Assembly: GCF_964213995.1 (NCBI RefSeq)
Contig: NW_027590154.1
Span: 372,001-436,000, forward strand
DNA length: 64,000 nucleotides
Source of the DNA: Mustelus asterias
Taxonomy: Eukaryota
Reading direction: 5' to 3'
Shown here in pieces: positions 11,093-54,474 of the stretch (the stretch's first letter is position 1; each line of letters starts with the position of its first letter). The notes under the pieces are model-generated. The model was not told where the DNA came from. It did no database searches and saw only the letters and a program-made list of their open reading frames with translations. Both the position numbers and the translations under genes were made by a program.

Positions 11093-11992
11093 TGAGTTCA
11101 GGGGGATGGAGTCAGAGGGAATAGAGCAGGGAGAGAGGATCCCTGGGATGATTTTCAGTGTGTTCTGGACGATGATATGAGAGGGAATGGAGCAGAGATC
11201 GAGGTTCCCTGGGGTGATATTCAGTGAGTTCAGAGCGATGCTATCAGAGGGAATGGAGCAGAGAGAGAAGAGCCCTGGGGTGATGCTCAGTGTGTTCAGG
11301 GCAATGGAGTCAGAGGGGATGGAGCAGGGAGAGAGGATCCATGGGGTGATGCTCAGTCAGGTCAGGGCGATGGAGTCAGAGGGAATGGAGCAGGGAGAGA
11401 GGATCCATGGGGTGATGCTCAGTCAGGTCAGGGCGATGGAGTCAGAGGGAATGGAGCAGGGAAAGAGGATCTCTGGGGTGAAGCTCAGTGAGGTCAGGGC
11501 GATGCTATCAGAGGGAATGGAGGAGGGACAGAGGATTCCTGGGGTGATGTTCGAACAGTTCAGGGTGATGGAGTCAGAGGGAATGGAGCAGGGAGAAGGG
11601 ATCCCTGGGATGATAATCAGTGAGTTCAGGGGGATGGAGTCAGGGGGAATGGAACACGGAGAGAGGATCCCTGGGGTGATGCTCAGTGGGTTCAGGGCGA
11701 TGCTATCAGAAGGAATGGAGCAGGGAGAGATGCTCCCTGTGGTGATGTTCAGTGAGTTCAAGAAGATGGAGTCAGAGGGAATCGAGCAGGGAGAGAGAAT
11801 CCATGGCTTGATGTTCAGTGAGTTCAGGGGGATGGAGACAGAGGGAATGAAGCAGGGAGAGAGGATACCTGGGGTGATGCTCAGTGAGTTCAGGGACATG
11901 GTATCAGAGGGAATGGAGCAGGGAAAGAGGATCCCTGGACTGATGCGCAGTGAGTTCAGGGGGAAGGAGTCGGAGGTAATGGAGCAGGGACA
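11093..11992. repeat. 60-bp minisatellite, about 15 copies
   Basis: Unit approximately GGAGTCAGAGGGAATGGAGCAGGGAGAGAGGATCCCTGGGGTGATGCTCAGTGAGTTCAGGGCGAT, in register with the 60-nt display lines. Confidence 0.95.
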
Positions 11993-20261: not shown

Positions 20262-20740
20262 ATGGGAATCCTCCTTGTTTTCACCCTATCTGTCTGTTTA
20301 CCCCGTGAGTACCGATCAAACTAATCCACAACGTGTGGATTGAATATAAATCTGTCCCAGTCCATCCCAATTACAGACACTGTCTGGGGTTTCAGCCCCG
20401 TTGTGTGGTTCTCCTCTGATGGTCCATTAAACTCTCCCTCTTTAATTTCCAGGATCTTTCAGTCAGTCAGTAACGCAGAGCCCGGCAGCGTTGACCAGGA
20501 AGGAGTGTCAGTCTCTCACCATCACCTGTATCTTTTACGGTCATAATTGGGGCTATTATTTCCAAAATGGATATTTCTTCAGACAAACCCAGACCGGGAC
20601 GGAGCGGGAGCGGATCTCCAGCGGAGGGAGATTTGTTGTGTCTGTGAACAGAGCAAAAAAGACATTTTCGCTGGAAATTCGGGATGTGCGAGTTGAAGAC
20701 ACCGCCACCTATTACTGTAAAGCTGATTACTGGTACTACA
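20262..20740 (+). CDS. NAR-TCR V gene segment (IgNAR-like V): leader exon 20262-20304 and V exon 20453-20740
   Basis: Leader MGILLVFTLSVCLP with phase-1 GT..AG intron. V reads SFSQSVTQSPAALTRKECQSLTITC...ERISSGGRFVVSVNRAKKTFSLEIRDVRVEDTATYYCKADYWY. It has the VNAR-type short FR2/CDR2 (ERISxGGR) and an extra FR1 Cys. Confidence 0.93.
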
Positions 20741-20778
20741 CACCGTGATGGGCCTCGACTTCCAGCGATACAAAAGCT
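20741..20778 (+). other. RSS of the NAR-TCR V (22-bp spacer)
   Basis: CACCGTG (20741-47), 22 bp, ACAAAAGCT (20770-78). Confidence 0.85.
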
Positions 20779-21119: not shown

Positions 21120-21147
21120 GGTTTTGATACTGAATTGTAACACTGTG
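21120..21147 (+). other. 12-RSS, 5' signal of the NAR-TCR D segment
   Basis: GGTTTTGAT (21120-28), 12 bp, CACTGTG (21141-47). It faces the V RSS 341 bp upstream. Confidence 0.9.
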
Positions 21148-21165
21148 CAAATGGTTGGGGGGCGG
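21148..21165 (+). other. NAR-TCR D segment; 3' end fused to the inverted V-delta, exact end undefined
   Basis: G-rich CAAATGGTTGGGGGGCGG directly after the 12-RSS heptamer. No 3' RSS follows; a matching 12-RSS lies at 26901-26928. Confidence 0.75.
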
Positions 21166-21471
21166 CTATGTGCTGACTCAGTCCACAGTAATACACAGCC
21201 GAGTCGCTTAGTTGCAGTTTGGAGATCTTTAACCGGCTGATTTTCTGGACAGAATCGATAGAAGCAGTAATTCTCTCCCCGGCAGCGTTTTCTTTATTGT
21301 CCCCTCCTGAAGTGTGTTTCTGCAGCAAGTATTTCAGAGTTTGCCCTGGGGGCTGACTGTACCAGTGTACTGTGTACTGACAGATTCCTGAATATTCACA
21401 GCTTAATGTAACCGTGTCATCGGCAGCAGAGATTTGGAGAGGCGGATTCTTGGATACCAGGGAAGAGGAAT
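21166..21471 (-). CDS. Leaderless 'supporting' TCR delta V exon of NAR-TCR, now inverted
   Basis: Acceptor ttttttctaatcctgcag then DSSSLVSKNPPLQISAADDTVTLSCEYSGICQYTVHWYSQPPGQ...KLQLSDSAVYYCGLS. It has an extra CDR1 Cys, no adjacent leader seen, and a phase-1 acceptor matching the J donor at 26498. Confidence 0.9.
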
Positions 21472-21649
21472 CTGCAGGATTAGAAAAAAAGCGTTTGTTT
21501 AGGTTTTGCCATTTTTTAGTCGGAGATTGTGTCAGTCGCAGGAGTAGCTCAGTTTTATGCGGAGTTATTATTATTTTAATTCTAATGGAACGATATTGAC
21601 TTACGCTATAAACCAGTGTACAATGAGGTGACATTTTATTTTGCACAAG

Positions 21650-22135
21650 TTCTAATGATCTGTAACGATGTTATTAAACTGGAGGGAGTGCAGAAGAGAT
21701 TTACAAGGATGTTGCCAGGACTCAAGGGACTGAGTTATAGGGAGAGTTTGGACTTTTTCCTTTGGTGCGTAGGAGATAGAGGGGTGATCTTGTAGAAGTG
21801 TATAAGATCATAACAGGCACGGATAGGGCGAATGAACTCAGTCTTATTCCCAGGGTTGGGGAATCGAGAACAAGAGGGAATAGGGAAAGAAGTAACGGGA
21901 ACCTGCAGAGCAACTTCTTTTTACACAGAGGGTGGTACGTATATGGAATGAGCTGCCGGAGGAAGTGGTTGAGGCAGCGACATTGACAACATTTCAAAGG
22001 CATTTGGACAGATACATGGATAGGAAAGGTTTAGAGAGATATGGGCCAAATGCCGGCAAATGGCTGAGCTTAGATGAGCATTTTGATCGGCATGGATCAG
22101 TTTGGACCGAAGGGCCTGTCTTTCTGCAGTAAATT
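21650..22135 (+). mobile_element. CR1 3' fragment
   Basis: RFTRMLPG / RGDLVEVYK / VWNELP similarity. Confidence 0.85.
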
Positions 22136-23168
22136 CTGTGAATCCATGAATATACTGTCAGCTCAGTAGGAGCTGGTTTAACAGTGAATTATGAATGAGC
22201 AACGATCACATTCATGAACAGGAAAACAGCAGGTTTATCGGGAAAATTCATGGCTTGTGGAAGAATTCGATTTCATTTATAAAGGGGCAGCATCTACCCT
22301 AGGGGCCGAATGTCGCCCTTCCAGACGAAATGATTTTACGATATATGTTCGCTTTCAATTTCAGTTTTCCATGTTGAGAGACAAACCGAGGGAACATTTT
22401 ATTGTCAGTGACGCAATCCGTTTCCAGAAATGATTGTCAGAGAGTAACGCAGCTGCGTCACATCACAGCATACAGCAAGATCCAACAAAGAATGACTGTG
22501 ATTCATCAGCTCCAATGGGACCGAACCATGCCGAACAACGGTCGTCAAATGTCATACATTTATTTCAGTTTAACACTTCCTGAGAGTCTGTGTTTGCTTT
22601 TTAATCTATTTGTTTATTTTCTGTCAGTATCATGTTTTCTCCCCTTCACTTAACATTGAAATATCTAGTCAGTTTCATTTCATTTACTTTTTGCTGCTTG
22701 GGTTTCTTGTGTCGTGGGAGCATGCCCCAAAGTCTCATAGTTGCCAGTTGCGTTCATTCTGTTCAGTTTCCGCAGTGGTTTTACTGTTACTCACTGGGAA
22801 CTGCCTCTTCTGGATCTCCGACAATTTCGTTTTTTCTGCTCATTAACTGATTCTCTCCCGGCTCTGGGCAGAGTTTTCTCTAAGTTGTACATTTTATAGA
22901 AACTTCAGAAGAAGAAGAGACACTTCGGCCCACTCATTTATGTCTGTGGAAATACTCCAGACCAGCCTCAGCCCGCAGTTTTCTAATTGATTTTTCCCAT
23001 CCAGCTCCCTGTGTCAGTCTGATCTGTTCTCCCTCGGATCTTTTCAAGTCTTCCCATAGATGCGTCAATACCTGCTGCTCCAAACATTCAATGTGACAGT
23101 GAGTCCCTCTTCCTGGCTGATATTTAAAATTCTTCTTCTTAATGTTTAGATTTTCTCTGAATCACTAT

Positions 23169-24432
23169 TGTCAGGAGGCAGAAGTAGTTTATATAGTCTG
23201 TGATTGTATTATTGGATATTAGAAATAAGATATAGATTTAAGTGAGTTTAGTTTAGCGTTTCTGTGTAAGGTCGGGTAAAATTCTAGTTAGCTTGCTATT
23301 AAACAAAGATGTTTGCATGTATGTGGTTTTTGGTTCATTTTAAACTGTGCCTGTATTATGCTGAGGGAGTTAATGACATGAAAAATAAAAAGCTGTAAAG
23401 AAGGAATAGGCTGTTGCTTGGGAACCAGGAGCCACCTTTATGTTAGGAAGGGGTTTTACTGGACTCAAGGCCGTAGGAGATACGTAATGAGACAAAAAGC
23501 ACCTCTCACAGCTCTGCCAGAAGCAGAAGCAATAAAATGGAGTAATGAGAAAAAAGAACTTCCAGAAAATAAAGAACAGATCGTTTTAGAAACCAAGGAA
23601 TTGAAAAAGGTCCCAGGACAACTGAATTGAGAGGGCCAAAGGAACTCGAAACTGAACTATGTACTGTTTATCAAAGTTGAAGAAAGGGGCAGAGACAGAG
23701 GCCCCCAGCTAAATGCAGAGCTGAAATTCACAGACCTGGTGAAGTTGGCAAGCCAGCTTTCAGATATAATCATGATGTTGGTGAGACCAGTGAAGCAGTA
23801 TTGGCATGGCTGCATACCTCTGAGATTGTACGGAAACTTGAATGCACATGACAATTCAAGACAAAGGAATAGTGAAAGCAAAGTGCGAAATCCTGGAAGT
23901 GGATCCTTGCTGAAAATAGCGCAGGCAAAGGGTTATTTGGTAGAATTTACCAAGACAGGACTTTTCGAGAGTGGGAATGGGAAACACTCGTGTGGATGCC
24001 AGAGTCCAGTGAGGCCAGTTGGTTCACATCAGTATAATGATCTGCGGGGTTGTGAGGAGCAATCCACAGAAATTCGATTGGGTGGCATCGACAATTAGGT
24101 TTTGGAATGGGGTGTAGCTGACCACAGTGGCCTATTGCTATACAGGGACTGCATTTACGGAGAACAGTATAGCAAAGATATATTTTGCAACCTGTGTTAT
24201 CCTTAAAGTCTGCGTACAGTCATGAGGAGTTGGGCTGAAGGAGAATTGTGTCATAGTAAAACTTTTCATGTTTAATAAATGTTTGTTTCTTCTGTTACTA
24301 AAAGCTAATTGGCCATCCAGTTACTCCATTCCCCCAATTGTTCTAAAACAGAAGAAAACACTACATTATTTCTAACCAGAGTTGCACCTGGGAGTTTCCC
24401 ATCCAGTAGTAACATCAACTGGGATCGTAACA
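23169..24432 (+). mobile_element. Solo LTR, 1264 bp
   Basis: TGT...ACA termini, exact 4-bp target-site duplication CTAT (23165-68 and 24433-36), AATAAA near 24274. A related 3' end occurs at about 51890-51990. Confidence 0.75.
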
Positions 24433-24849
24433 CTATCAGATGTTAATAGCCCCTTGCTCCAGACATACCCAAAAATAAATAGTTTGGCCACATCCATCTC
24501 ATTAACCCGTTCATTAGTTGAACGATTTCAATGAGTCCTCTTTGCTGTTCTCCAATCTCTAGACGAAAAGAGACCCAGCATGTTCCCCACGTCCAGAGAT
24601 TGTTGCTGATTGCTTTCCTGAGAAATGCAGACATAGAAGCAACATTTCCAACTGATAGAAGCAAGAGTGGCTGTTCCACATTTCAAAGCTACGCAGTCAC
24701 TCAGTGATGTTGCAGTTTATCTTCTGCCTCAACAAGAAACTGACCCATTGGTAGGACAGACTCAGCAGACCTGGCGGCACAATGGGATATAATCGGAAGC
24801 GACTTGCCCGGAGAGTCCTCAATATCCTCCCTCGACTGCATGAAGACTC

Positions 24850-25682
24850 ATTACATCAGATCAGACATTGGCAAAGAAACCTGCTGATTCCCGCGTGCCT
24901 CTGCTGATGTGTCTACACTCCTCCATGTTGAACAACACATGGAGGAAGGACTGAGGATTGCGAGGGTGCAGAATGTACAATGGTAGGGGGACTTCAATAT
25001 CCATCGCTACGACTCTCTCGCTAGCACATAGCAAGATATAAGTGCTAGACTGGCAACTACCAAGAGGGAATAATGCATACTTGACCTCACCCTCAGCAAG
25101 CTGACTGTCGCAGCTGCACCACCAGAGCAGTATCAGTAGGACTGGCCACATAAAATCCTTGTGGACACAAAGTCCTGTTTTCACATTGAGCTACGCTCCA
25201 TCTTGTAGTGCGGCACCGTCACCGGACCGAATAGAATAGATTTCGAGCAGATCTAGCAACTCATTGCTCGGCATCCATGAAGCACTATGGGCCATCAGCA
25301 GCAGAATTGTACTCAAACACAATCTGTAACCTCATGGCCCAGCATGTCCCCTGCATTGACATTAGCAAACGAGGGAGTTACACTGGTCAATGAAGACTTT
25401 AGAAGGCAATCCCAGCAGCAACACCCGGCGTCCCTATAAATGAGTTGTCAATCTGCTGAAGATAAGGCTAAACCATTGGCAACAATCTTCATCCACAGGT
25501 ATCGAGTGGGTGATGCATCTCGACCTCCTCCGGAGGTCCCCAGCATCAGTGATGTCAGTCTTCATCCAGTTTGATTAACTCCACGTGACTTCAGGACCGG
25601 CTGAAGGCACTGGATGCTGCAAAGGCTATGGGCCCTGGAAATATCCCGGCAATATTACTGAAGACTTGTGCTCCAGAACTAA
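24850..25682 (+). mobile_element. Degenerate non-LTR retrotransposon fragment (endonuclease to RT linker)
   Basis: GGGGACTTCAAT (GDFN) and AAGGCTATGGGCCCTG (KAMGP) remnants. Confidence 0.6.
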
Positions 25683-26497
25683 CCACTAACGGTGGTAAAT
25701 AAGAAAAAGTGATTTGTTAAATTGAGGGTATTTAAAGAAATATCAGGTACAACGTCAGTAATTTCAGTCACTGATTTCTCGATTACAACATTCCTCTGGA
25801 CCACCAATAAGTACACTTAGACCTGAAGTCCGTTGTGTCATTTTCCTTTTTGTCACCTGGGTCATGTATTGAATGAGTCGCTGCTGTTAAATGAATTGGC
25901 CGCAGTGATATTCATCTCATTCAGCCGGTATACTATTGATATTGCAAGGGTAGGACTGCAATCTACTGCCCAAGAGAAAGCTCTGGGACCCTGCACCGGG
26001 TTGTAAGCGACAGACAGATCTCCCTCAGTCACATTTAGTAGCCAGAGTGGATTCCGGAGTGTTGTAAATTTGAGCTTGTTAAAAACTATCAGAAGTGACA
26101 GAGTTCTTGATGTTGACGTGCCCCTTTCAATCAATAATCTCCCAGATGCTGTCAACTCCCACATCACATCTAACACGAGCACCCGCACCCCACGCTTCAC
26201 CACCCTTTACCCCGAACCCACTGCCCACCCCCCCCCCCCACCCCCGCCCCGCACGAGCTTCGCCCCGCTATCCTTGTCCCGCTGACCGCCGACTCCATCA
26301 GGTCTCACAGACATTTTTCCCGGGACTGACCTGGACCCGACTCCAGAATCACATCCAGCTCCCAACTCGAAATCTGTAACGGATGATTTTCCACAGGAAG
26401 ATTGGATTGGATTGAAACGAGACAGATCACAATGATAAAGTGATCGGGAACATTAAACGATAAAATCTGTAACACGGCGGGGTTTGGAACCACTTAC

Positions 26498-26550
26498 CGG
26501 CTGTGACAGTCACCACCGTCCCGGATCCATCTCCAGAATCATCATCGGCC
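26498..26550 (-). other. NAR-TCR J segment (IgNAR/IgH-like), inverted
   Basis: Encodes ADDDSGDGSGTVVTVTA with a GxGT motif and a phase-1 donor G|GTAAGT. Confidence 0.92.
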
Positions 26551-26589
26551 CACAGTGGCACCGCTCTCAGTCTCCTCAGTACAAGATCC
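26551..26589 (-). other. 23-RSS of the J segment
   Basis: On the + strand: CACAGTG (26551-57), 23 bp, ACAAGATCC (26581-89). Confidence 0.9.
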
Positions 26590-26900
26590 ACCGACATCTC
26601 AATCTGCCGGGAAATCATCACCACTCATTCAGTAGTGTCCAATTTTTGGGGGGATTTAAAATTAATAAATAATATTCATTGTTTCAAAGTCTCTGTCCGT
26701 TCAAATTGTACTTTGTGAGGTCCGAGTTCTCAGTAAATGGCCGCAGGAAGGAAATATTCACTTCATACATCGCAAAAAAAATTAAAGAAAGATGGGAATG
26801 GTGGGGATTACAGTAACAGTAGTCCAGATTACAGCGAAAATAACATCAAATCAATGATTCACTATCTGGGCCCTGAGAATTTATATTGTAATTGTGCACA

Positions 26901-26967
26901 GGTATTTGCTCAGCTCCTTTTCACTGTGCACAGTGATACAGAACACGGAGAGAGCTGTACAAAAACC
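26901..26967. other. Precise 12/23 RSS signal joint
   Basis: GGTATTTGC, 12 bp, CACTGTG (26922-28) fused directly to CACAGTG (26929-35), 23 bp, ACAAAAACC (26959-67). Confidence 0.95.
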
Positions 26968-27150
26968 TGAACATGGCGAGGATGACAGACACAGTGATAC
27001 AGAACACGGAGAGTGCTGCACAAAAACCTGAACATGGCGAGGATTACAGACACAGTGATACAGAACACGGAGGGAGCTGCACAAAAACCTGAACATGGTG
27101 AGGATTAGAGACACAGTGATACAGAACACGGAGAGAGATGTGCTGAAAAC
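26929..27150 (+). repeat. 61-bp tandem repeat whose unit is a 23-RSS plus a 22-bp linker (3 complete, 1 degenerate)
   Basis: Heptamers at 26929, 26990, 27051 and 27112. ACAAAAACC nonamers at 26959, 27020 and 27081. Confidence 0.95.
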
Positions 27151-27627
27151 TTAGTCCTACTCCTTGTCCAACAGGTTCAAGATTCTTGCTCCTGCTGTTG
27201 ACGAGGGTGAGGACTGTAGGACAGATGAGCGAAGTGGCCACAGTACCGTGGGCCAGGGAGCCATTCAAGTGGGGTAGGAAGGAGGAATCTAGTCGTAATC
27301 GGCGATCGTATAGTTAGGGGCACAGACAATGTTCTCTGTGACCAGGAGCGATAGTCCTGTAGATTGTGTTGCCCCCTGGTGCCAGGTTTCGGGTCACCTC
27401 CTCAGGACTGCAGAGAATTCGGAATGGGAGGGGGAAAATCCAGTTGTCATTTTTGACGTATGTACGAATGACATAGGCAGAACAAGGATGCACATTCTGC
27501 TAAGGGAAGATGAATAGCCAGGTTCTAAACTCAAAATCATAACCAAAAAGGTAATAATCTCTGGATTAATTTCTGAGCCATGAGCTAACTGGGACACGAT
27601 TAATGAGATTAAAGAGGTAAACGTTTG

Positions 27628-28545: not shown

Positions 28546-29319
28546 GTGTGGCTCATAGTTTCATGTGGGAGAAATGTGTTCGAATTCATGGAATATTAGC
28601 ACCAGTATTTGTGCAGGAAGGAGCTGTTGCATCGGTGCGGACTCAATCTGAATCATGCTGGCGAATAACTAGGGCTGTAGATAGGGCTTTAAACTAAATA
28701 GTGGGGTCAGGAGGAATCAGTGTTCAGTTCCATGTAATAATAAAAAAAATCGAAGTTAAAGGAGAAGGTTGGACTGAAGGTTAACGATGAAACTGATTGT
28801 TACCAGAAAATAAAAGGAAGGGACAGAACGTGTGGACATCATAGGGCACCAGGAAATCGTGCAAGAATAGGGAAATTTGATAACAGAACAAACTTAAAGG
28901 CTTTGTACCTCACTGCACGAAACTTTGGGAATAAAATTAATGAGTTAATTGTACAAATTTAGAGAAATGTGTATGAATTCATGGCGATTACTGAGACATG
29001 GTTGCAGGCAAAACAAGATTTGGGAATTGAATATCCAAGGGTACTTAATATTTCAGACGGATAGACAGAAACGAAATGAGATGCTGTAGTAATATTTAGG
29101 TCCCCAATCAGTCGTTTGGCAGTGAAGCATAGTATAAATGAGGAAATATTGGGGGCTTGTAAGAAAGGTACGTCAATAATCATGGATGATTTTAATATGC
29201 ATGTAGAGTGGATTTATCAAATTGGCAAGGGTAGCCTCGAGGGAAAGTTCATTGAATGTATTAGAGATTGTTTCTTGCAGAAATATGTTGTGGAACCAAC
29301 GAAAGAGCAGACCAATCTT

Positions 29320-32990: not shown

Positions 32991-34431
32991 TTAATTTAGT
33001 TATTCTCATTGATTTCGTTTCAATAAATTATTTTATATTCTTATATTTAATGTTGATCTTTCGAGACAAGTACACAGCAATATTACTTTTGACTGAGTTT
33101 ACTTAATGATTGGAATTTTACAAATAGTTATTTAAAAACTTCAGGAGTGAGAAAAGGCAAACCTATCATAGATATGAACAGTTCACCAAACACTCCTTCG
33201 ACACTGCCTTCCGAACCCAAAACATCCAGCACTTGGAAATAAATTTGATGCATATGGACACGAAAAGCATCGCCTGCAGTATTCCCTCCAATCCACACAC
33301 ATCCATGAAGCTAAAATCACCTTTCTGCGACTGTCGCTGGGTCAAAACCATGGGGGACATCACTTTCCCCCTAAAAGTACTGTTGAGTGTACCTTGTGCA
33401 CGTGGACACACAGCACTCCAGGAAGGCAGCTCCTCACTCTCTTCTCAAGGGGGGCAATTAAGCAGGGGCAGTAAATACTGGCTCAGTCTCGCGACTCATA
33501 TCCCAGGACAGAACAAATCACAGAGTCGATAGTGTGGGATTTAGGCGAAGCATGTTTTAATTCCTTAAGTGAATGGTGAGAACGTGGAACTGTAGAACAT
33601 GGAATATGTGACATGAACAGTGTTTATACATCACAGGGAGGCTTTCAGGTGGAGAGAAAGAGTAATAGGCGTCAAATCTGATAGTTTGAGGTGGAGTTGG
33701 GGTGAATAAACGCCAGCAAAAGCCCATGGGCCGAATGGCCTGTTTCTGCGTTAACAAATTTGAAATGCTGCCATCGAATTAAAAACATGGTCGGGTATCA
33801 ACTCAAATTCCATCCCACACCTCATTTGGTTTTGGATATATGTTGTAGATATTGATCTAGCCAGACTTTAATCCTTCAAGTCTCTGGCCAGGCGGCACAC
33901 CAAGGAGCACCGCCCTCCAGCTCAGCTTCGTGCAATGGTACTGATGCACTCACAGGGCAAAACCGCGACTGCCGCCTACCTCCAGTGTCAGCACGATGCC
34001 TACAGAGGAAGCTGGGGCCACCCTCCATTGGGCCGACCCTATCCTCCCCCTCCCCCGCACCTCCCCAGCTTCAAATCGGTAGAGTGGTTGGAACCTCCAC
34101 TTAATTCTAATTTTCTCTACCCTTCAGGTAGCCTGACTGCATCCGCAGTCATCCACCAGCCAGAGGCAGAGGTGAGGGTCCAACAGGGAGCCACCATGAC
34201 CATCGCCTGCTTCTACACAGAGGTGGAGAGGGCTTGTTTGGTCTCGTGCCGGGAACCTCTCCACCCAGCCATGGGAGGGAGTCCCGAGTATATTCTCATG
34301 CGCTGCACCGACGGTTTCAGCGACAGCGCCACAATTTCCAGGCGTCGCTTTTCCTCCTCCCTGAGCAAAACTTACAGAATCATCAGTCTGACAGTTGCAC
34401 CGGTGACAGCTGAGGTCTCCAGGAAATACTT

Positions 34432-34555
34432 CTACATAAGAACATAAGAAATAGGAGCAGGAGTAGGCCATCTAGACCCTCGAGCCTGCCCCGCCATTCA
34501 ATAAGATCATGGCTGATCCACTTACCCGCCTGCTCCCCATAACCCTTAATTCCCC
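34432..34555 (-). mobile_element. Very short CR1 3' insertion inside the V exon
   Basis: (CATAAGAA)n tail, flanked by TACTT repeats at 34427-31 and 34556-60. Confidence 0.8.
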
Positions 34556-37048: not shown

Positions 37049-37359
37049 NNNNNNNNNNNNNNNNNNNNNNNNNNNNNNNNNNNNNNNNNNNNNNNNNNNN
37101 NNNNNNNNNNNNNNNNNNNNNNNNNNNNNNNNNNNNNNNNNNNNNNNNNNNNNNNNNNNNNNNNNNNNNNNNNNNNNNNNNNNNNNNNNNNNNNNNNNNN
37201 NNNNNNNNNNNNNNNNNNNNNNNNNNNNNNNNNNNNNNNNNNNNNNNNNNNNNNNNNNNNNNNNNNNNNNNNNNNNNNNNNNNNNNNNNNNNNNNNNNNN
37301 NNNNNNNNNNNNNNNNNNNNNNNNNNNNNNNNNNNNNNNNNNNNNNNNNNNNNNNNNNN
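37049..37359. other. Assembly gap (311 N)
   Basis: Run of N. Confidence 1.
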
Positions 37360-39637: not shown

Positions 39638-40014
39638 ACAAACATGGTAAGCTGTACGTCTGCTGTCTGTGTGACGCTTCACGGCGAGGTTTGATGGATA
39701 TTTGGTGTTAGCAATCTATTTCTCGGCTTGATTTTAAAATCCAGATTTGATTATAGAGGAATACAGAACTGATTTGTAGCAGAAGGGACGATTTAATTGA
39801 CGCATTGACTATGTGATGGACCTGTCGGCCTAATTGATTCTGCAGTTTGTTTTCTCAGCCTCTCCTGGGAACAGTTGGGTGACAGTTGATCCGAGGTTAA
39901 CATGGTTTCCTGTCAGCGCATGTTTGAGCGGCTGACAGCGCCGCTGCTCATTGTGGCTGCATCTGCCAGAAGTTCTATACAGCAGCGAGGAGCTCTGACT
40001 TATCCTGCTGAGAC

Positions 40015-40053
40015 AGTTTTTGTACAGGAGTCAGACTGCTTTCCATCACTGTG
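40015..40053 (-). other. 23-RSS
   Basis: CACAGTG, 23 bp, ACAAAAACT on the minus strand. Confidence 0.95.
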
Positions 40054-40512
40054 AGGCTGAAAGCGCAGTAATACACGGCCGCGTCAGACAACTGCAGATC
40101 CGAGATAGTCAAACTGATGGATTTCTTCGAGGTCTGGAGGTCAGTCGAGAAACGGATTTTAGCAAAATCTGCTTTATATTCAGTACCCCACGAGAGCTTT
40201 CTCAGTATGTACTCGGGCTGGGAGTCTGGCTGCTGTCGGTACCAGTATAAAATATAGCTGGTTTCTGCAGTATCATAGTTGCAGTTTAATGTCACCGCGT
40301 CTCCTTCTGTCTTAACATCTGAGGACAGCGACTGAGTGACAGAATCTCCATGGCTCAGACCTGGAAAATATGTTCGAATAGATAAAGAAAAGAGTGACGA
40401 GTACTCAACAGTAAGATTCAACCCAAGTTTTGGAAATGAGTAAACAAACGTGATGTCCAGATATACCTGTTACAAATGCCCCCCACACAATCCAGATGCC
40501 GAGTACCCGCAT
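40054..40512 (-). CDS. Intact TCR alpha/delta V gene segment (leader 40512-40467, V exon 40360-40054)
   Basis: MRVLGIWIVWGAFVTG/LSHGDSVTQSLSSDVKTEGDAVTLNCNY...LYWYRQ...DLQLSDAAVYYCAFS, with canonical Cys-Trp-Cys, GT-AG intron and a good RSS. Confidence 0.95.
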
Positions 40513-44883: not shown

Positions 44884-45409
44884 GGTTTTTGTACGGGGTT
44901 TCAGCTGTAATCTAATGCTGTGTCTCACTGCACAGTAATAGACCGCCCGTCCTCCAAACTGAGGGCGCTTATATTGAGGGAGCCGCTCTGTGTGGACTTG
45001 TCAGTAGCCGCCAGATATCGTCCTGAAACTTCATTTTCCTCCACTACGAGTGCATTGGTAATAATCCATCTCGGTGGCTGTGCCGGTTTCTGCTGATACC
45101 ATTGCATGTAGCTCATCTCCTTGTCTGTATAGTTACAATCCAACTGCACCGAATCCCCTTCTGATGCTGTTATTGTCACCGGTGACTGAGTTACTGGATC
45201 TGCGCACAGTCCACCTGTAAAGGTAGAGGAATTAAATATCAAGAGTTCATGTAAATTTATAGTTTTTGGAACCTCCCATCTACACCTCACATGGATATTT
45301 TTGATGGTTAATTAAATTGGCATCTTTGTGTATAAATATGTTTCCGTGGTTTGATGAACGTTATCCGGTACTTACTGTGCAAGAGCGCCGCCAGAATGAT
45401 CAGAAACAT
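44884..45409 (-). pseudogene. TCR alpha-like V segment with a 1-nt frameshift just before YYC (leader 45409-45376, V exon 45214-44923, 23-RSS 44922-44884)
   Basis: MFLIILAALLHS/GLCADPVTQSP...VQLDCNY...MQWYQQ...LSLED, then a shifted frame AVYYCAVR. RSS CACAGCA, 23 bp, ACAAAAACC. Confidence 0.9.
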
Positions 45410-46816: not shown

Positions 46817-46955
46817 GGTGAAACTGTGTGAGAGGTTGACTGGGACAGCCATCGTATTAGAGGGTTGGATGGAGCGAAATTTGTTGAGTGTATTCAGGAG
46901 GAATTTCTCATTCCCGACGAGAGGGGGCAAAACTTTACTTCCTCTTGGGAAATAA

Positions 46956-49900
46956 TGTGTTGTTTCTGCATGATGTGGGAGCTGGTGGACCCCACTGTTG
47001 TTCCCAGTGAGCATGTCTGCAGTAAGTGTTGGTTGCTTGAGGTACTCCGGCTCAGGGTTGATGAGCTGGAGTCTGAGCTTCAGACACTGCGACATATCAG
47101 GGAGGGGGAGAGTTACCTGGACGCTGTGTTTCAGGAAGCAGTCACACCCCTTAGACTAACTAATTCAGCCGGGGGTCAGGGACAAGAGGGTGTGGCTGCG
47201 AGCGAGGCAGGAAGTGGGATCCAGAAGGTAGAGTTGCAAGAGCCTCAGTCCCTGAATCTGTGCAACACGTTTGAGATTCTTGCTCCCAGTGTGGACGGGA
47301 ATGGGGACTGCAAGGAGGACGAGCAAACTGCCCACGGCACCATGGTACAGGGAGCCGTTCAGGTGGAAGAAGAAAAAAGAAATGTAGTGGTAATTGGGGA
47401 TAGTGTAGTTAGGGGTATTGACACTGTTCTTTGTGACCAAGATCGAGAATACCAAAGGTTGTGTTGCCTGCCTGGTGCTTGGGTCCAGGACATCTCATCT
47501 GGGCTGCAGAGGAACTTGGAGTGGGAGGGTAAGAATCCAGTTGTAGTGGTCCACGTAGGTGCCAACGACATAGGCAGAACAGGAACAGTGGTTCTGCAGA
47601 GGGAGTATGAAAAGCTAGGAGCCAAATTAAAAAGCAGAACCAACAAGGTGGTAATCTCTGGATTACTACCTGAGTCACAAGCGAATTGGCGTAGGGTCAA
47701 TAAGATTAAGGAGGTAAATGGGTGGCTCAAAGATTGGTGTGGGAGGAATGGGTTTGAATTCATGGGATATTGGCACCAGTATTGGGGAAGATGGGACCTG
47801 TTCAGATGGGATGGTCTTCGTCTGAATCGTGCTGGGACCAGAGTCCTGGCGAATCGTATAACCAGGGCTGTAAATAGGGCTTTAAACTGAATAGTGGGGG
47901 GGGGGGGGGTGAGGGAGGGAGGGTTCAGGGGCATGGGGAATTACAAAATCAAAGGTAAAGGAGAGGGTACGAGTGCAGGTTAATGATGAGGACATTCACC
48001 GAGTTAAAGGAGTCAAGGGCTCAGGCAGAGTAAAAAAGGTGACAAACACAAGAAGAGCGGTGGTTAACACAGTGCAAGGAGATGGTCTGGGGAAGGATAA
48101 CCAGTTTGAGACAGGTAGGGACAGAGCGTGCAATCAGAAGAATGCACTAACAAATCAGGTCCATATAAAGGCTAGCATAAAGACACTTTACCTGAATGCA
48201 CGTAGCATTCGAAACAAAGTGAATGAGTTGATGGCACAAATCAGTACAAATGGGTATGATCTAGTGGCCATTACAGAAACGTGGTTGCAGGGTGACCAGG
48301 ACTGGGAACTGAATATCCAGGGGTATCAGACATTTCGGAAGGATAGACAGGAAGGAAAAGGAGGTGGGGTAGCTCTGTTAATTAAAGATAACATCAGGGC
48401 GGTAGTGAGAGACGATATAGGCTCTAAGGAGCAGAATGTGGAATCGTTGTGGATGGAGATAAGGAATAGTAAGGGGAGAAAGTCACCGGTGGGCGTGGTC
48501 TATAGGCCCCCAAATAATAACTTTGAGGTGGGTCGGGCTATAAACAAGCAAATAATGGGTGCGTGCAAAAACGGAACAGCAATAATCATGGGGGATTTTA
48601 ACCTGCATATTGATTGGTTGACTCAAGTCGGACACGGTGGACTTGAGGAAGAGTTCTTAGAATGCTGTCGGGATCGTTTCCTCGAACAGTATGTTACAGA
48701 ACCTACGAGGGAGCAAGCTATCTTGGATCTGGTCCTGTGTAATGAGACAGGTAAAATTAATGATCTTCTTGTGAGGGATCTTCTTGGAATGAGTGATCAC
48801 AATATGGTTGAATTTCTAATACAAATGGAGGGAGAGAAAATAGGGTCCCAAACCAGTGTCCTCTGCTTGAACACAGGGGAGTACAATAGGATGAGGGCAG
48901 AATTGGCTAATGTAGACTGGGAGTGCAGACTAGTTGGTAGGACAGCTGAGCAACAGTGGTGGATTTTTAAGGAGATTTTTCTCAGTACTCAGCAAAAATA
49001 TGTTCCTGTGATAAAGGGGAAATATGAATACATAAGGCAGCTAATTAGAGGAGTAAATTGGAAGGAGGGATTCTCGGGGAAATCTACTGAAGAGAGGTGG
49101 CAGTTTTTCAAGGAATGTCTGTCTAGGGTTCTACAGGACAATGTTCCGAGCAGGCAGGGAGGAGTTGGTAGGTTAAAGGAACCGTGGTGCACGAAAGCTG
49201 TGTGGGACCTAGTCGAGAAGAAAGGAAGTGTATAAAAGGCTTAGAGAGCTTGGCGAAGATAGGGATTTAGAAGAGTATAGGGCTTGTAGGAAGGGACTAA
49301 AGAAGGAAATTTGGAGAGCCAGAAGGGGTCACGAGAAAGCCTTGGCAAGTAGAATTAAGGAAAACCCTAAGGCGCTTTATAAATATGTGAAGAGTAAAAG
49401 GATGAGACACGAAGGAATAGGGCCTATAAAAGGTGAAGGCGGGAAAGTCTGTACGAAACCAGTAGAAATGGCAGAGGTGCTTAATGAGTATTTTGCCTCG
49501 GTTTTCACAGAGGAGAAGGACATGGGTGGATGTACTGTGGGCTTGCGGTGGATTGAAAAGATTGAGTATGTGGACTTTAACAAAGAGGTTGGAATCTTTG
49601 AATGGCATCAAGATAGATAAGTCGCTGGGTCTGGATGGGATATACCCCAGGTTACTGTGGGAGGCAAGGGAAGAGATTGCAGAGCCTCTGGCGATGATCT
49701 TTGCGTCGTCGATGGAGACGGGAGAGGTTCCGGAGGATTGCGGATGTGGTTCCTATTTTCAAGAAGGGGAATAGGGATAGCCCAGGAAATTACTGACCGG
49801 TGAGTCTAACCTCAGTGGTTGGTAAGCTGATGGAGAAGATCCTGAGGGACAAGATTTATGAGCATTTAGAGAGGTTTAGTATGCTCAAGAATACTCAGCA

Positions 49901-52842: not shown

Positions 52843-54048
52843 TTACTCGTGAATTCTTTGGTGCCTAAGCAGGTAGGATGACCGAGTGAATCTCTTCCCA
52901 CTTTCAGAGCAGGTGAATGGCCTCTCCCCAGTGTGAGCTCGCTTGTGTCTCAGTAGGGTGGAGGACTGAATGAATCCCTTCCCACATTCAGAGCAGGTGA
53001 ATGGCTTTTCCCCAGTGTGGGTGCGCTGGTGTAGAATGAGATCATATGATCGCTTGAACCCAGTCCCACAGTGAGAGCACCTGAACGGTCTCTCATCAGT
53101 GTGAACACGTTGATGGGAAGTCAGTTCACCAGAACTTTTATAGCACTTCTCACAGTCAGAGCATTTAAAAGGTCTCTCCCCGGTGTGAACTCGCTGGTGT
53201 GTCAATAGGTGGGATGACCGAGTGAATCCCTTCCCACAGCAGGAGCAGGTGAATGGCCTCTCCCCAGTGTGAATTCGCTGGTGTTGCAGCAGGCGGGATG
53301 ACCGAGTGAATCCCTTTCCACACTTGGAGCAGGTGAATGGCCTTTCCCCAGTGTGGATGCGCTGGTGTGGAATGAGGTCATATGATCGCTTGAACCCAGT
53401 CCCACAGTGAGAGCACCTGAACGGTCTCTCATCAGTGTGAACACGTTGGTGGGACATCAGTTCATCAGCACTTTTATAGCACTTCCCACAGTCAGAGCAT
53501 TTAAAAGGTCTCTCCCCAGTGTGAACTCGCTGGTGTGTCATCAGTTGGGATGACCGAGTGAATCCCTTTCCACACTCGGAGCAGGTGAATGGTCTCTCCC
53601 CAGTGTGAATTCGCTGGTGTACAGTGAGGTTATGTGAATGCTGGAACCCAATCCCACAGTGAGAGCACCTGAATGGTCTCTCATCAGTGTGAACACGTTG
53701 ATGGGACATCAGTTCCCAAGAACTTTTGAAGCACTTCCCACAGTCTGAGCATTTAAAAGGTCTCTCATCAGTGTGAACTCGCTGATGAGTAAGTAGGTGG
53801 GATGACTGAGTGAAACCCTTCCCACACTCAGAGCAGGTGAACGGTCTCTCCCCAGTGTGACTGCGTTGATGAGTTTCCAGCTGGGATGGGTAATTAAATT
53901 CCTTCCCACAGTCCACACATTTCCACAGTTTTTCCAAGGAGTGGCTGCACTTACGTTTTGACAGGCCAGAGGATCGGCTGAAGCCTCGTCTACACACAGA
54001 ACCCGTGTACAGTTTCTCTCCACTGTGAATAGTGCTTTTTCCTTCCAT
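52843..54048 (-). CDS. Tandem C2H2 zinc-finger protein, 401 aa (12 canonical and 2 degenerate fingers)
   Basis: Repeated CxxC-x12-HxxxH with TGERPF/TDERPF linkers. Likely splice acceptor tttcacag at 54156-58. Upstream exons not defined. Confidence 0.92.
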
Positions 54049-54474
54049 GTTCCAAATCCACTGATATTCAGTTATGATAAATTAGATGACTCTGGCAGTT
54101 CCTGATATGATATTTACTTTCAGTTTGCTGACTGCAAATCGTCCCCTTCTAGTCCCTGTGAAACTGATTTAAAACAGAAAAAGAGGGATTCAGAGAAAAC
54201 CCATAGAGACAGGTGATGAATAGAGTCCAGACCAAAGCAACAATTTTTTAAAAAACACGCAGGAGGCCAGGAAATGAGGATCGTCGAGATATTCAGCAGA
54301 CTAGGCAGCCTGTGAGAGCTACAAACATTATTGAGGGCTCAGATTGCTGACTTGCCCTCAGTCTATAATGAAACATCTAGAGTCACGCACTGACTAATGG
54401 CGGTCATATTTCCCACAATGCTCTGCGCCCCAGAAACCCCTCTATTCAAAAGTTGCTCACCGTAATTCACTAAT

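Follow-up and report, generated by a model that had tools for sequence, protein, structure and literature searches.

A copy-number-variable array of 23-RSSs behind the supporting V-delta segment of shark NAR-TCR cassettes

The 64-kb stretch of Mustelus asterias DNA analysed here (referred to in its entirety as the window) carries a NAR-TCR cassette that is broken by an internal inversion (Table 1). The accessible part of PMC1845163 gives a leader, a cysteine in the a–b loop and a WYRK motif lacking tryptophan as marks of NAR V, and a cysteine in CDR1 as that of the supporting V-delta. The NAR-type V of the window has the leader, the a–b loop cysteine (in RKECQSL) and a WYRK motif without tryptophan (GYFFRQ), and the supporting V-delta has the CDR1 cysteine (CEYSGICQYTVHWY). 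In a protein search that returned 53 matches, four gene models of Mustelus asterias were 96–100% identical to the supporting V-delta, and the gene models homologous to it splice J directly to the V exon. On the minus strand at 21634–21605, 133 bases before the acceptor of the supporting V, an ATG and ten codons lead to a GTAAGT donor; the stretch has the wrong phase for a leader and is possibly a vestigial leader exon. The RSS of the NAR V (20741–20778) has one heptamer mismatch and a 22-bp spacer, and is likely weaker than the consensus.

The window holds several other features. Two TCR V segments on the minus strand are oriented opposite to the NAR V: one at 39975–40469, apparently intact and with a good 23-RSS, and one at 44925–45311 that is frameshifted just before YYC. 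An ORF of 412 residues encoding a C2H2 zinc-finger array (52843–54081, minus strand) adjoins TCR V segments. A degenerate V-like exon at 33872–34447, without Pfam match or RSS, is spliced into the gene model P0002. A 66-bp minisatellite of 13.6 copies (11093–11990) is open on both strands, and a run of 311 N occupies 37049–37359.

Table 1. Elements of the inverted cassette and of the RSS array, in window coordinates.
Feature	Position	Strand	Remarks
Leader exon of NAR-type V	20262–20306	+	
NAR-type V exon (to 20740) with single RSS	20453–20778	+	
D 5' 12-RSS	21120–21147	-	
D segment and any junctional bases	21148–21165	+	Coding joint at 21165/21166
Supporting V-delta exon, inverted	21166–21471	-	3' end apparently untrimmed, joined to D (compare P0003, which ends GLSRHIAQ)
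NAR J with splice donor, inverted	26498–26550	-	24/25 residues match P0002
23-RSS of the inverted J	26551–26589	+	Nonamer with 2 mismatches
12-RSS, presumed former D 3' RSS	26901–26928	-	Right end of inverted block
Heptamer-to-heptamer signal joint, perfect	26922–26935		Sole one in the window
Unit 1, consensus 23-RSS	26929–26967	+	Original RSS of the supporting V-delta; right half of signal joint; V ends abut here in un-inverted contigs
Linker 1, 22 bp	26968–26989	+	
Unit 2, consensus 23-RSS	26990–27028	+	Exact pattern match
Linker 2, 22 bp	27029–27050	+	
Unit 3, consensus 23-RSS	27051–27089	+	Exact pattern match
Linker 3, 22 bp	27090–27111	+	
Unit 4	27112–27150	+	Perfect heptamer; spacer 1 base off copy 1; nonamer with 4/9 mismatches; no linker
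Decayed LINE ORF1 (esterase-type) fragment	27151–27621	+	blastn and tblastn against 46832–47887; start uncertain by about 10 bases

Unit 1 (RSS1; the signals of units 2–4 are called RSS2–RSS4) is fused at 26928/26929 to a minus-strand 12-RSS. This exact signal joint and the reciprocal coding joint at 21165/21166 record the use of unit 1 by RAG together with a 12-RSS. A RAG-type 12/23 reaction that paired the 3' RSS of D with RSS1 of the supporting V has inverted the 5.76 kb from 21166 to 26928. The array that begins with RSS1 represents the signal of the supporting V-delta, now separated from it by this inversion. The gene model P0002 is colinear and identical to the window in the leader, NAR V and supporting V, with one differing J residue, and differs from the window in 5 of 40 residues of the next exon; it is therefore an allele, an ortholog or a recent paralog. 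Since so similar a cassette is colinear, the inversion must be recent.

Tandem Repeats Finder (TRF) reported a period of 61 bp, 3.4 copies and 94% matches at 26929–27137, the only 61-bp array among its 18 rows for the window. A pattern search found exact CACAGTG-23-ACAAAAACC at 26929, 26990 and 27051, and none in 100 dinucleotide shuffles of the window. The 61-bp unit with three full 23-RSS copies that had been described in the first-pass annotation is thus real: units 1–3 have the heptamer CACAGTG, a 23-bp spacer and the nonamer ACAAAAACC of a complete 23-RSS, all linkers between units are 22 bp, and the unit lies within the 10–100 bp of a tandemly repeated VNTR minisatellite. No coding segment adjoins units 2–4, which are tandem copies spaced by a linker of fixed length. 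Units within the window differ pairwise by 3–5 of 61 bases. Among units 1–3 there are six variable columns, all of them in the spacer (positions 23, 25 and 30) or linker (positions 49, 56 and 58), which bears out the earlier statement that substitutions spare the heptamers and nonamers.

Two readings of the linker were rejected: that it copies the V end, since its local scores were equalled by 220–569 of 1000 shuffles, and that the linkers are D segments, since no 12-RSS occurs inside the array even at up to three mismatches. An Rfam search gave nothing at the gathering score; its one match scored 23.8 bits, where the cut-off is 91, and lay over the signal-joint palindrome.

Contigs from four of 11 public runs (X1 and X3 from organism A, X5 from organism B and X6 from organism C) were aligned to 26380–27260 at 80% likeness. 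V ends with YYC codons appeared as loose ends before 26928 in all four runs (at least six, four, one and four records in X1, X3, X5 and X6, respectively), and X5 had one further V-type loose end at 27051. At least three array units stood on single contigs in X1, X3 and X6 (records 5, 11 and 28). Joints going back within the array were found in X1 and X6, which indicates longer arrays there. The ratios of array to J depth were 2.9 (X1), 6.1 (X3), 2.7 (X5) and 14.4 (X6); summed contig depth does not equal copy number, and the ratios give a hint that the arrays may be longer in organism C. None of the 38 listed of 216 array differences from the contigs falls at a heptamer position.

The first-pass annotation had named assembly stutter of a single copy as an outcome that would refute it. 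Among the contigs listed, none covers the full 881-base stretch, as stutter would allow. However, six columns distinguish the copies from one another, several units occur together on the contigs named above, and the gene model P0008 reads a V and five units in one go. We regard stutter as having almost no chance of being correct.

Unit 4 corresponds to the fourth copy with a decayed nonamer that had been noticed before, and by its 4/9 nonamer mismatches it falls short of an intact 23-RSS. The LINE ORF1 fragment cuts the array off at about 27151 and resumes at 28549–28694. It is 73% identical to another copy in the window (47259–47718), and the LINE ORF at 46832–47887 has a GDSL-like domain by Pfam. 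One X6 contig (record 32) bridges the array and the LINE and has consensus nonamer letters at 27142, 27145 and 27149, which speaks for true decay of the fourth nonamer rather than for a LINE fragment beginning 10 bases sooner.

The earlier reading, that a series of several consensus RSSs followed the supporting V before it was inverted, was correct. It had also been proposed that the array promoted the inversion. The breakpoint does coincide exactly with the array. However, the breakpoint is RSS1, the ordinary V-proximal signal, which sits where any V RSS would; the array lies behind un-inverted V ends in all four runs, and P0002 is colinear with the same NAR V and supporting V. The proposal found no support, and an array peculiar to this cassette, acting as the cause of its inversion, is most improbable. 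Among the contigs listed for the four runs, none spans the signal joint at 26928/26929, an absence that proves nothing, and one X6 contig has a D-like loose end continuing from 26928. The inversion may be a germline polymorphism or a somatic event read in the assembly. Germline RAG activity is documented in sharks in the available part of PMC2193153.

The array also appears in the gene models of other sharks. The tails that read past the V end were back-translated for the 18 of 58 proteins in which they seemed long enough, and were aligned to the repeated window unit. A second unit was found in 10 of the 18, in each case scoring above 60 of 60 shuffled units: P0008, in which the V is followed by five units; P0027, P0028, P0039, P0057 and P0048 of Hemiscyllium; P0042 of Stegostoma; P0046 and P0056 of Rhincodon; and, weakly, P0043 of Pristiophorus. 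The match past copy 1 is only 6–7 residues in P0039, P0057 and P0043, and the case for sawsharks is correspondingly weak. In six tails (P0009, P0012, P0022, P0030, P0037 and P0051) the second unit was unmatched, with 3–37 of 60 shuffles scoring as well; these tails diverge from the unit before copy 1 ends and look like spliced gene models, uninformative rather than negative. The tail of P0047 stops in copy 1, and that of P0001 is too short. The first-pass annotation had suggested looking behind other supporting V-delta genes and in other sharks, and the array is present there, in the contigs of four of four runs (three organisms) and in the ten tails.

Houndsharks and carpet sharks diverged about 200 million years ago, so an array common to both should be roughly of that age. 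Its length varies across loci and species, from 3.4 copies in the window to at least five in P0008, alleles being inseparable from paralogs here. The term minisatellite used in the first-pass annotation therefore holds for the tandem 61-bp repeat and fails for its local character: judged from the sequences compared, this is an ancient, copy-number-variable repeat common to several shark groups, an old class-wide feature of supporting V-delta genes.

Further searches were made for relatives. A word-index search with the P0008 tail returned only itself among 98 candidates, and a short-length V search returned two proteins, neither with a usable tail. No relatives were found in the viral contigs or prokaryote genomes searched. 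Metagenome contigs contained seven loci with paired 23-RSSs in series, none with a recognisable V or 61-bp unit. Five of these, on marine contigs (L001–L004 and L006), belong to a tandem repeat of 57 bp that is unrelated and sits in AT-rich DNA. Its units have CACAGTG and, 23 bases past it, a motif that varies and in some cases matches the nonamer perfectly. On L002, oppositely oriented 57-bp arrays flank a 640-base core. The 57-bp repeat is apparently an RSS-like satellite outside vertebrates, and its copies are possibly the subterminal repeats of a transposon.

We considered whether the extra RSSs are under selection. For units 1–3 the chance that none of the six variable columns would fall in the 16 signal bases is 0.147, so the invariance of the signals in the window is not evidence of selection; the first-pass annotation had rightly called selection unproven. 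Counts across species came from back-translation and see only the minimal non-synonymous differences from the unit of the window. In five carpet-shark genes (leaving out P0028, P0039 and P0057, which are near-copies of P0027), the heptamer and nonamer of copy 1 had 3/73 changes against 38/220 in spacer and linker (p = 0.003), whereas in copy 2 the corresponding counts were 15/80 and 30/173 (p = 0.86). In 7 of 8 carpet-shark tails, four of which come from close Hemiscyllium paralogs, the residues do not allow a CAC in copy 2. Units 2–5 of P0008, which are not independent of one another, had 1/64 changes in heptamer and nonamer against 17/180 in spacer and linker (p = 0.048).

Small differences among the units of so old an array require recent turnover. 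If the units are copied from a first one that is under selection, their signals would remain perfect even with no function, and such homogenisation predicts the P0008 pattern too.

The reading frame bears on what a cut at RSS2–RSS4 would produce. The V frame of the window runs through heptamer 1 as A-Q-stop, the stop being a TGA in the heptamer. Of 58 proteins, 48 have the end motif: 17 stop in the A-Q frame, 10 are carpet-shark proteins with an open frame, 20 are other and one (P0022) is a false match. With this stop, a cut at RSS2 or beyond gives a non-productive joint in the window, in which RSS1 is retained and which a second cut could repair. A cut at RSS1 deletes the whole array, which consequently cannot revise a finished receptor. 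The productive secondary rearrangement that had been envisaged is thus unsupported here, both by the TGA inside heptamer 1 and by the loss of the array in a deletional RSS1 cut.

A related alternative is that RAG cuts at RSS2 or beyond and leaves RSS1 and the linker (about 20 codons) in a productive delta chain, as an extension of CDR3 or a form of receptor revision. One frame through unit 1 is indeed open for 20 codons and is the one used by the 10 carpet-shark V ends, and mouse TRBJ coding joints can keep an RSS through use of a distal RSS, according to the part of PMC6857471 at hand. However, the V of the window and 17 of the 48 motif-bearing proteins stop at heptamer 1, and in the carpet sharks, where use of RSS2 would be in frame, RSS2 is mostly dead (7/8; this is one lineage, in a sample biased to read-through models). 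No array peptide occurs in the CDR3 of P0033 or P0049, two proteins that resemble rearranged chains. When 1.84 billion representatives were searched with the peptide of the array (TGA read as W), two matches came up, both germline read-through. Such an extension is very unlikely. This one lineage gives a hint that an intact RSS2 may go together with a stop frame.

The best-supported reading, and in our judgement a probable one, is that the array goes back to an old duplication and that unequal exchange with a selected first copy has kept it uniform, only RSS1 being needed. A neutral origin had been allowed for in the first-pass annotation. The 23-RSS of the supporting V-delta, with 22 bp of 3' flank, would have been duplicated in tandem once, in an ancestral shark NAR-TCR cassette, and the array would have been copied along with each duplication of the cassette, the V-proximal RSS alone being required. 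In the lineages of the window, P0008 and organisms A–C, unequal exchange or slippage would re-expand and homogenise the units, and the downstream heptamers and nonamers would stay perfect through copying from the selected first unit; in the carpet sharks turnover would have slowed and copy 2 decayed. RAG may occasionally cut the extra RSSs, with joints that would keep RSS1 and, for the V of the window, a stop, and so be futile or merely repairable. The inversion would have happened independently, as a 12/23 event involving the D 3' RSS and RSS1. The decay of nonamer 4 and the truncation of the array by a LINE agree with this reading. Against it stands the array's persistence behind one V class in several orders; the three other V segments of the window, a small control, have one RSS each. 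Such class-restricted persistence goes beyond what a neutral repeat would obviously require. The P0008 counts and the lack of heptamer positions among the listed contig differences also weigh against it.

The same class specificity argues for an adaptive array, in which the extra RSSs raise RAG occupancy or the capture of the D-delta 12-RSS. The supporting V, apparently without a working leader and about 6 kb from the promoter of the cassette, must rearrange for a NAR-TCR to be made, and a first cut at RSS2 or beyond would bring the V beside the D-J region and spare RSS1 for a productive joint. RAG1 binding at mouse TCR loci depends on promoters and transcription (accessible part of PMC3005232), and use of distal RSSs in vivo is possible, as far as PMC6857471 was available. 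The downstream heptamers are intact in 3/3 cases in the window and compatible in 4/4 in P0008, and RSS2 is mostly dead where its use would be in frame, as expected if extra signals are tolerated or kept only where they do not corrupt CDR3, although this amounts to about one event. However, carpet sharks keep their NAR-TCR cassettes despite the decay of copy 2 at spacer-like rates, copy number varies, the control V segments number only three, and extra 23-RSSs are the wrong partners for the D of the cassette itself. We therefore hold RAG loading to be possible but rather doubtful. A purpose-built array of this kind, retained through several shark orders, with signals kept where their use gives a stop and inactivated where it would put 20 residues into CDR3, is a tentative proposal that we would put a little lower still. 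If it were true, it would amount to cis-acting tuning of V usage by RSS copy number, and would lend efficiency to the later of the two rearrangements that the receptor requires.

One RSS per V segment is the expectation, and a V class with stacked consensus RSSs across shark orders is unexpected even if the duplication is neutral. Arrays of about two to at least five units, intact or dead, offer a natural series for asking whether an RSS gains from its neighbours, competes with them or is used by RAG regardless of them, and bear on how the doubly rearranging NAR-TCR ensures recombination of its promoter-distal V. RSS-based gene finders will call false segments at such arrays. If purely neutral, the array is a curiosity in which a functional signal anchors concerted evolution.

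Minisatellites and other VNTRs under concerted evolution have head-to-tail units, variable length and high identity within an array. The array of the window is like them in its 61-bp head-to-tail unit, its length variation and its within-array identity, but differs in that its first unit is an essential recombination signal that anchors the others.

RSS arrays behind shark V genes are unmentioned in the parts available of PMC12227049, PMC3964593 (with one supplement file), PMC6795676, PMC9248892 and PMC13433984, and likewise in those of PMC3457774, PMC2275272, PMC1845163, PMC5931798 and the abstract and outline of PMC6509286. A full-text literature search gave no title or abstract start on such arrays; Criscitiello 2006, Ott 2021 and Deiss 2019, or their supplements, may show the repeat. 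The NAR-TCR cassette of cartilaginous fishes consists of a NAR V-D-J and a leaderless supporting V-delta, and the locus shows the V features listed for it in the accessible sections of PMC1845163. It differs from the cassettes published there in its internal inversion and in the repeated RSSs behind the supporting V, of which those sections make no mention.

The shark Ig clusters reviewed in PMC2193153, as far as its available part shows, likewise display RSS-directed rearrangement in assembled shark DNA, there in the germline and including an inversion between D1 and D2. In the reviewed IgH cluster that inversion gave a hybrid joint, whereas the window has a standard signal joint and coding joint in a TCR-delta cassette, germline or somatic. 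Units 1–3 match the consensus 23-RSS given in the same part of PMC2193153 exactly in heptamer, spacing and nonamer. The array may be described as a known signal in an unexpected class-wide tandem architecture. A likeness to its extra signals exists at mouse TRBJ1-7 and TRBJ1-2 and human TRGVB, where, according to the available part of PMC6857471, a second signal lies 15–39 bases past the usual one and its use leaves germline DNA, including an RSS, in the coding joint. Those distal RSSs are dissimilar, cryptic and confined to single genes, whereas the shark array consists of near-identical consensus copies and belongs to a class of genes in several species.
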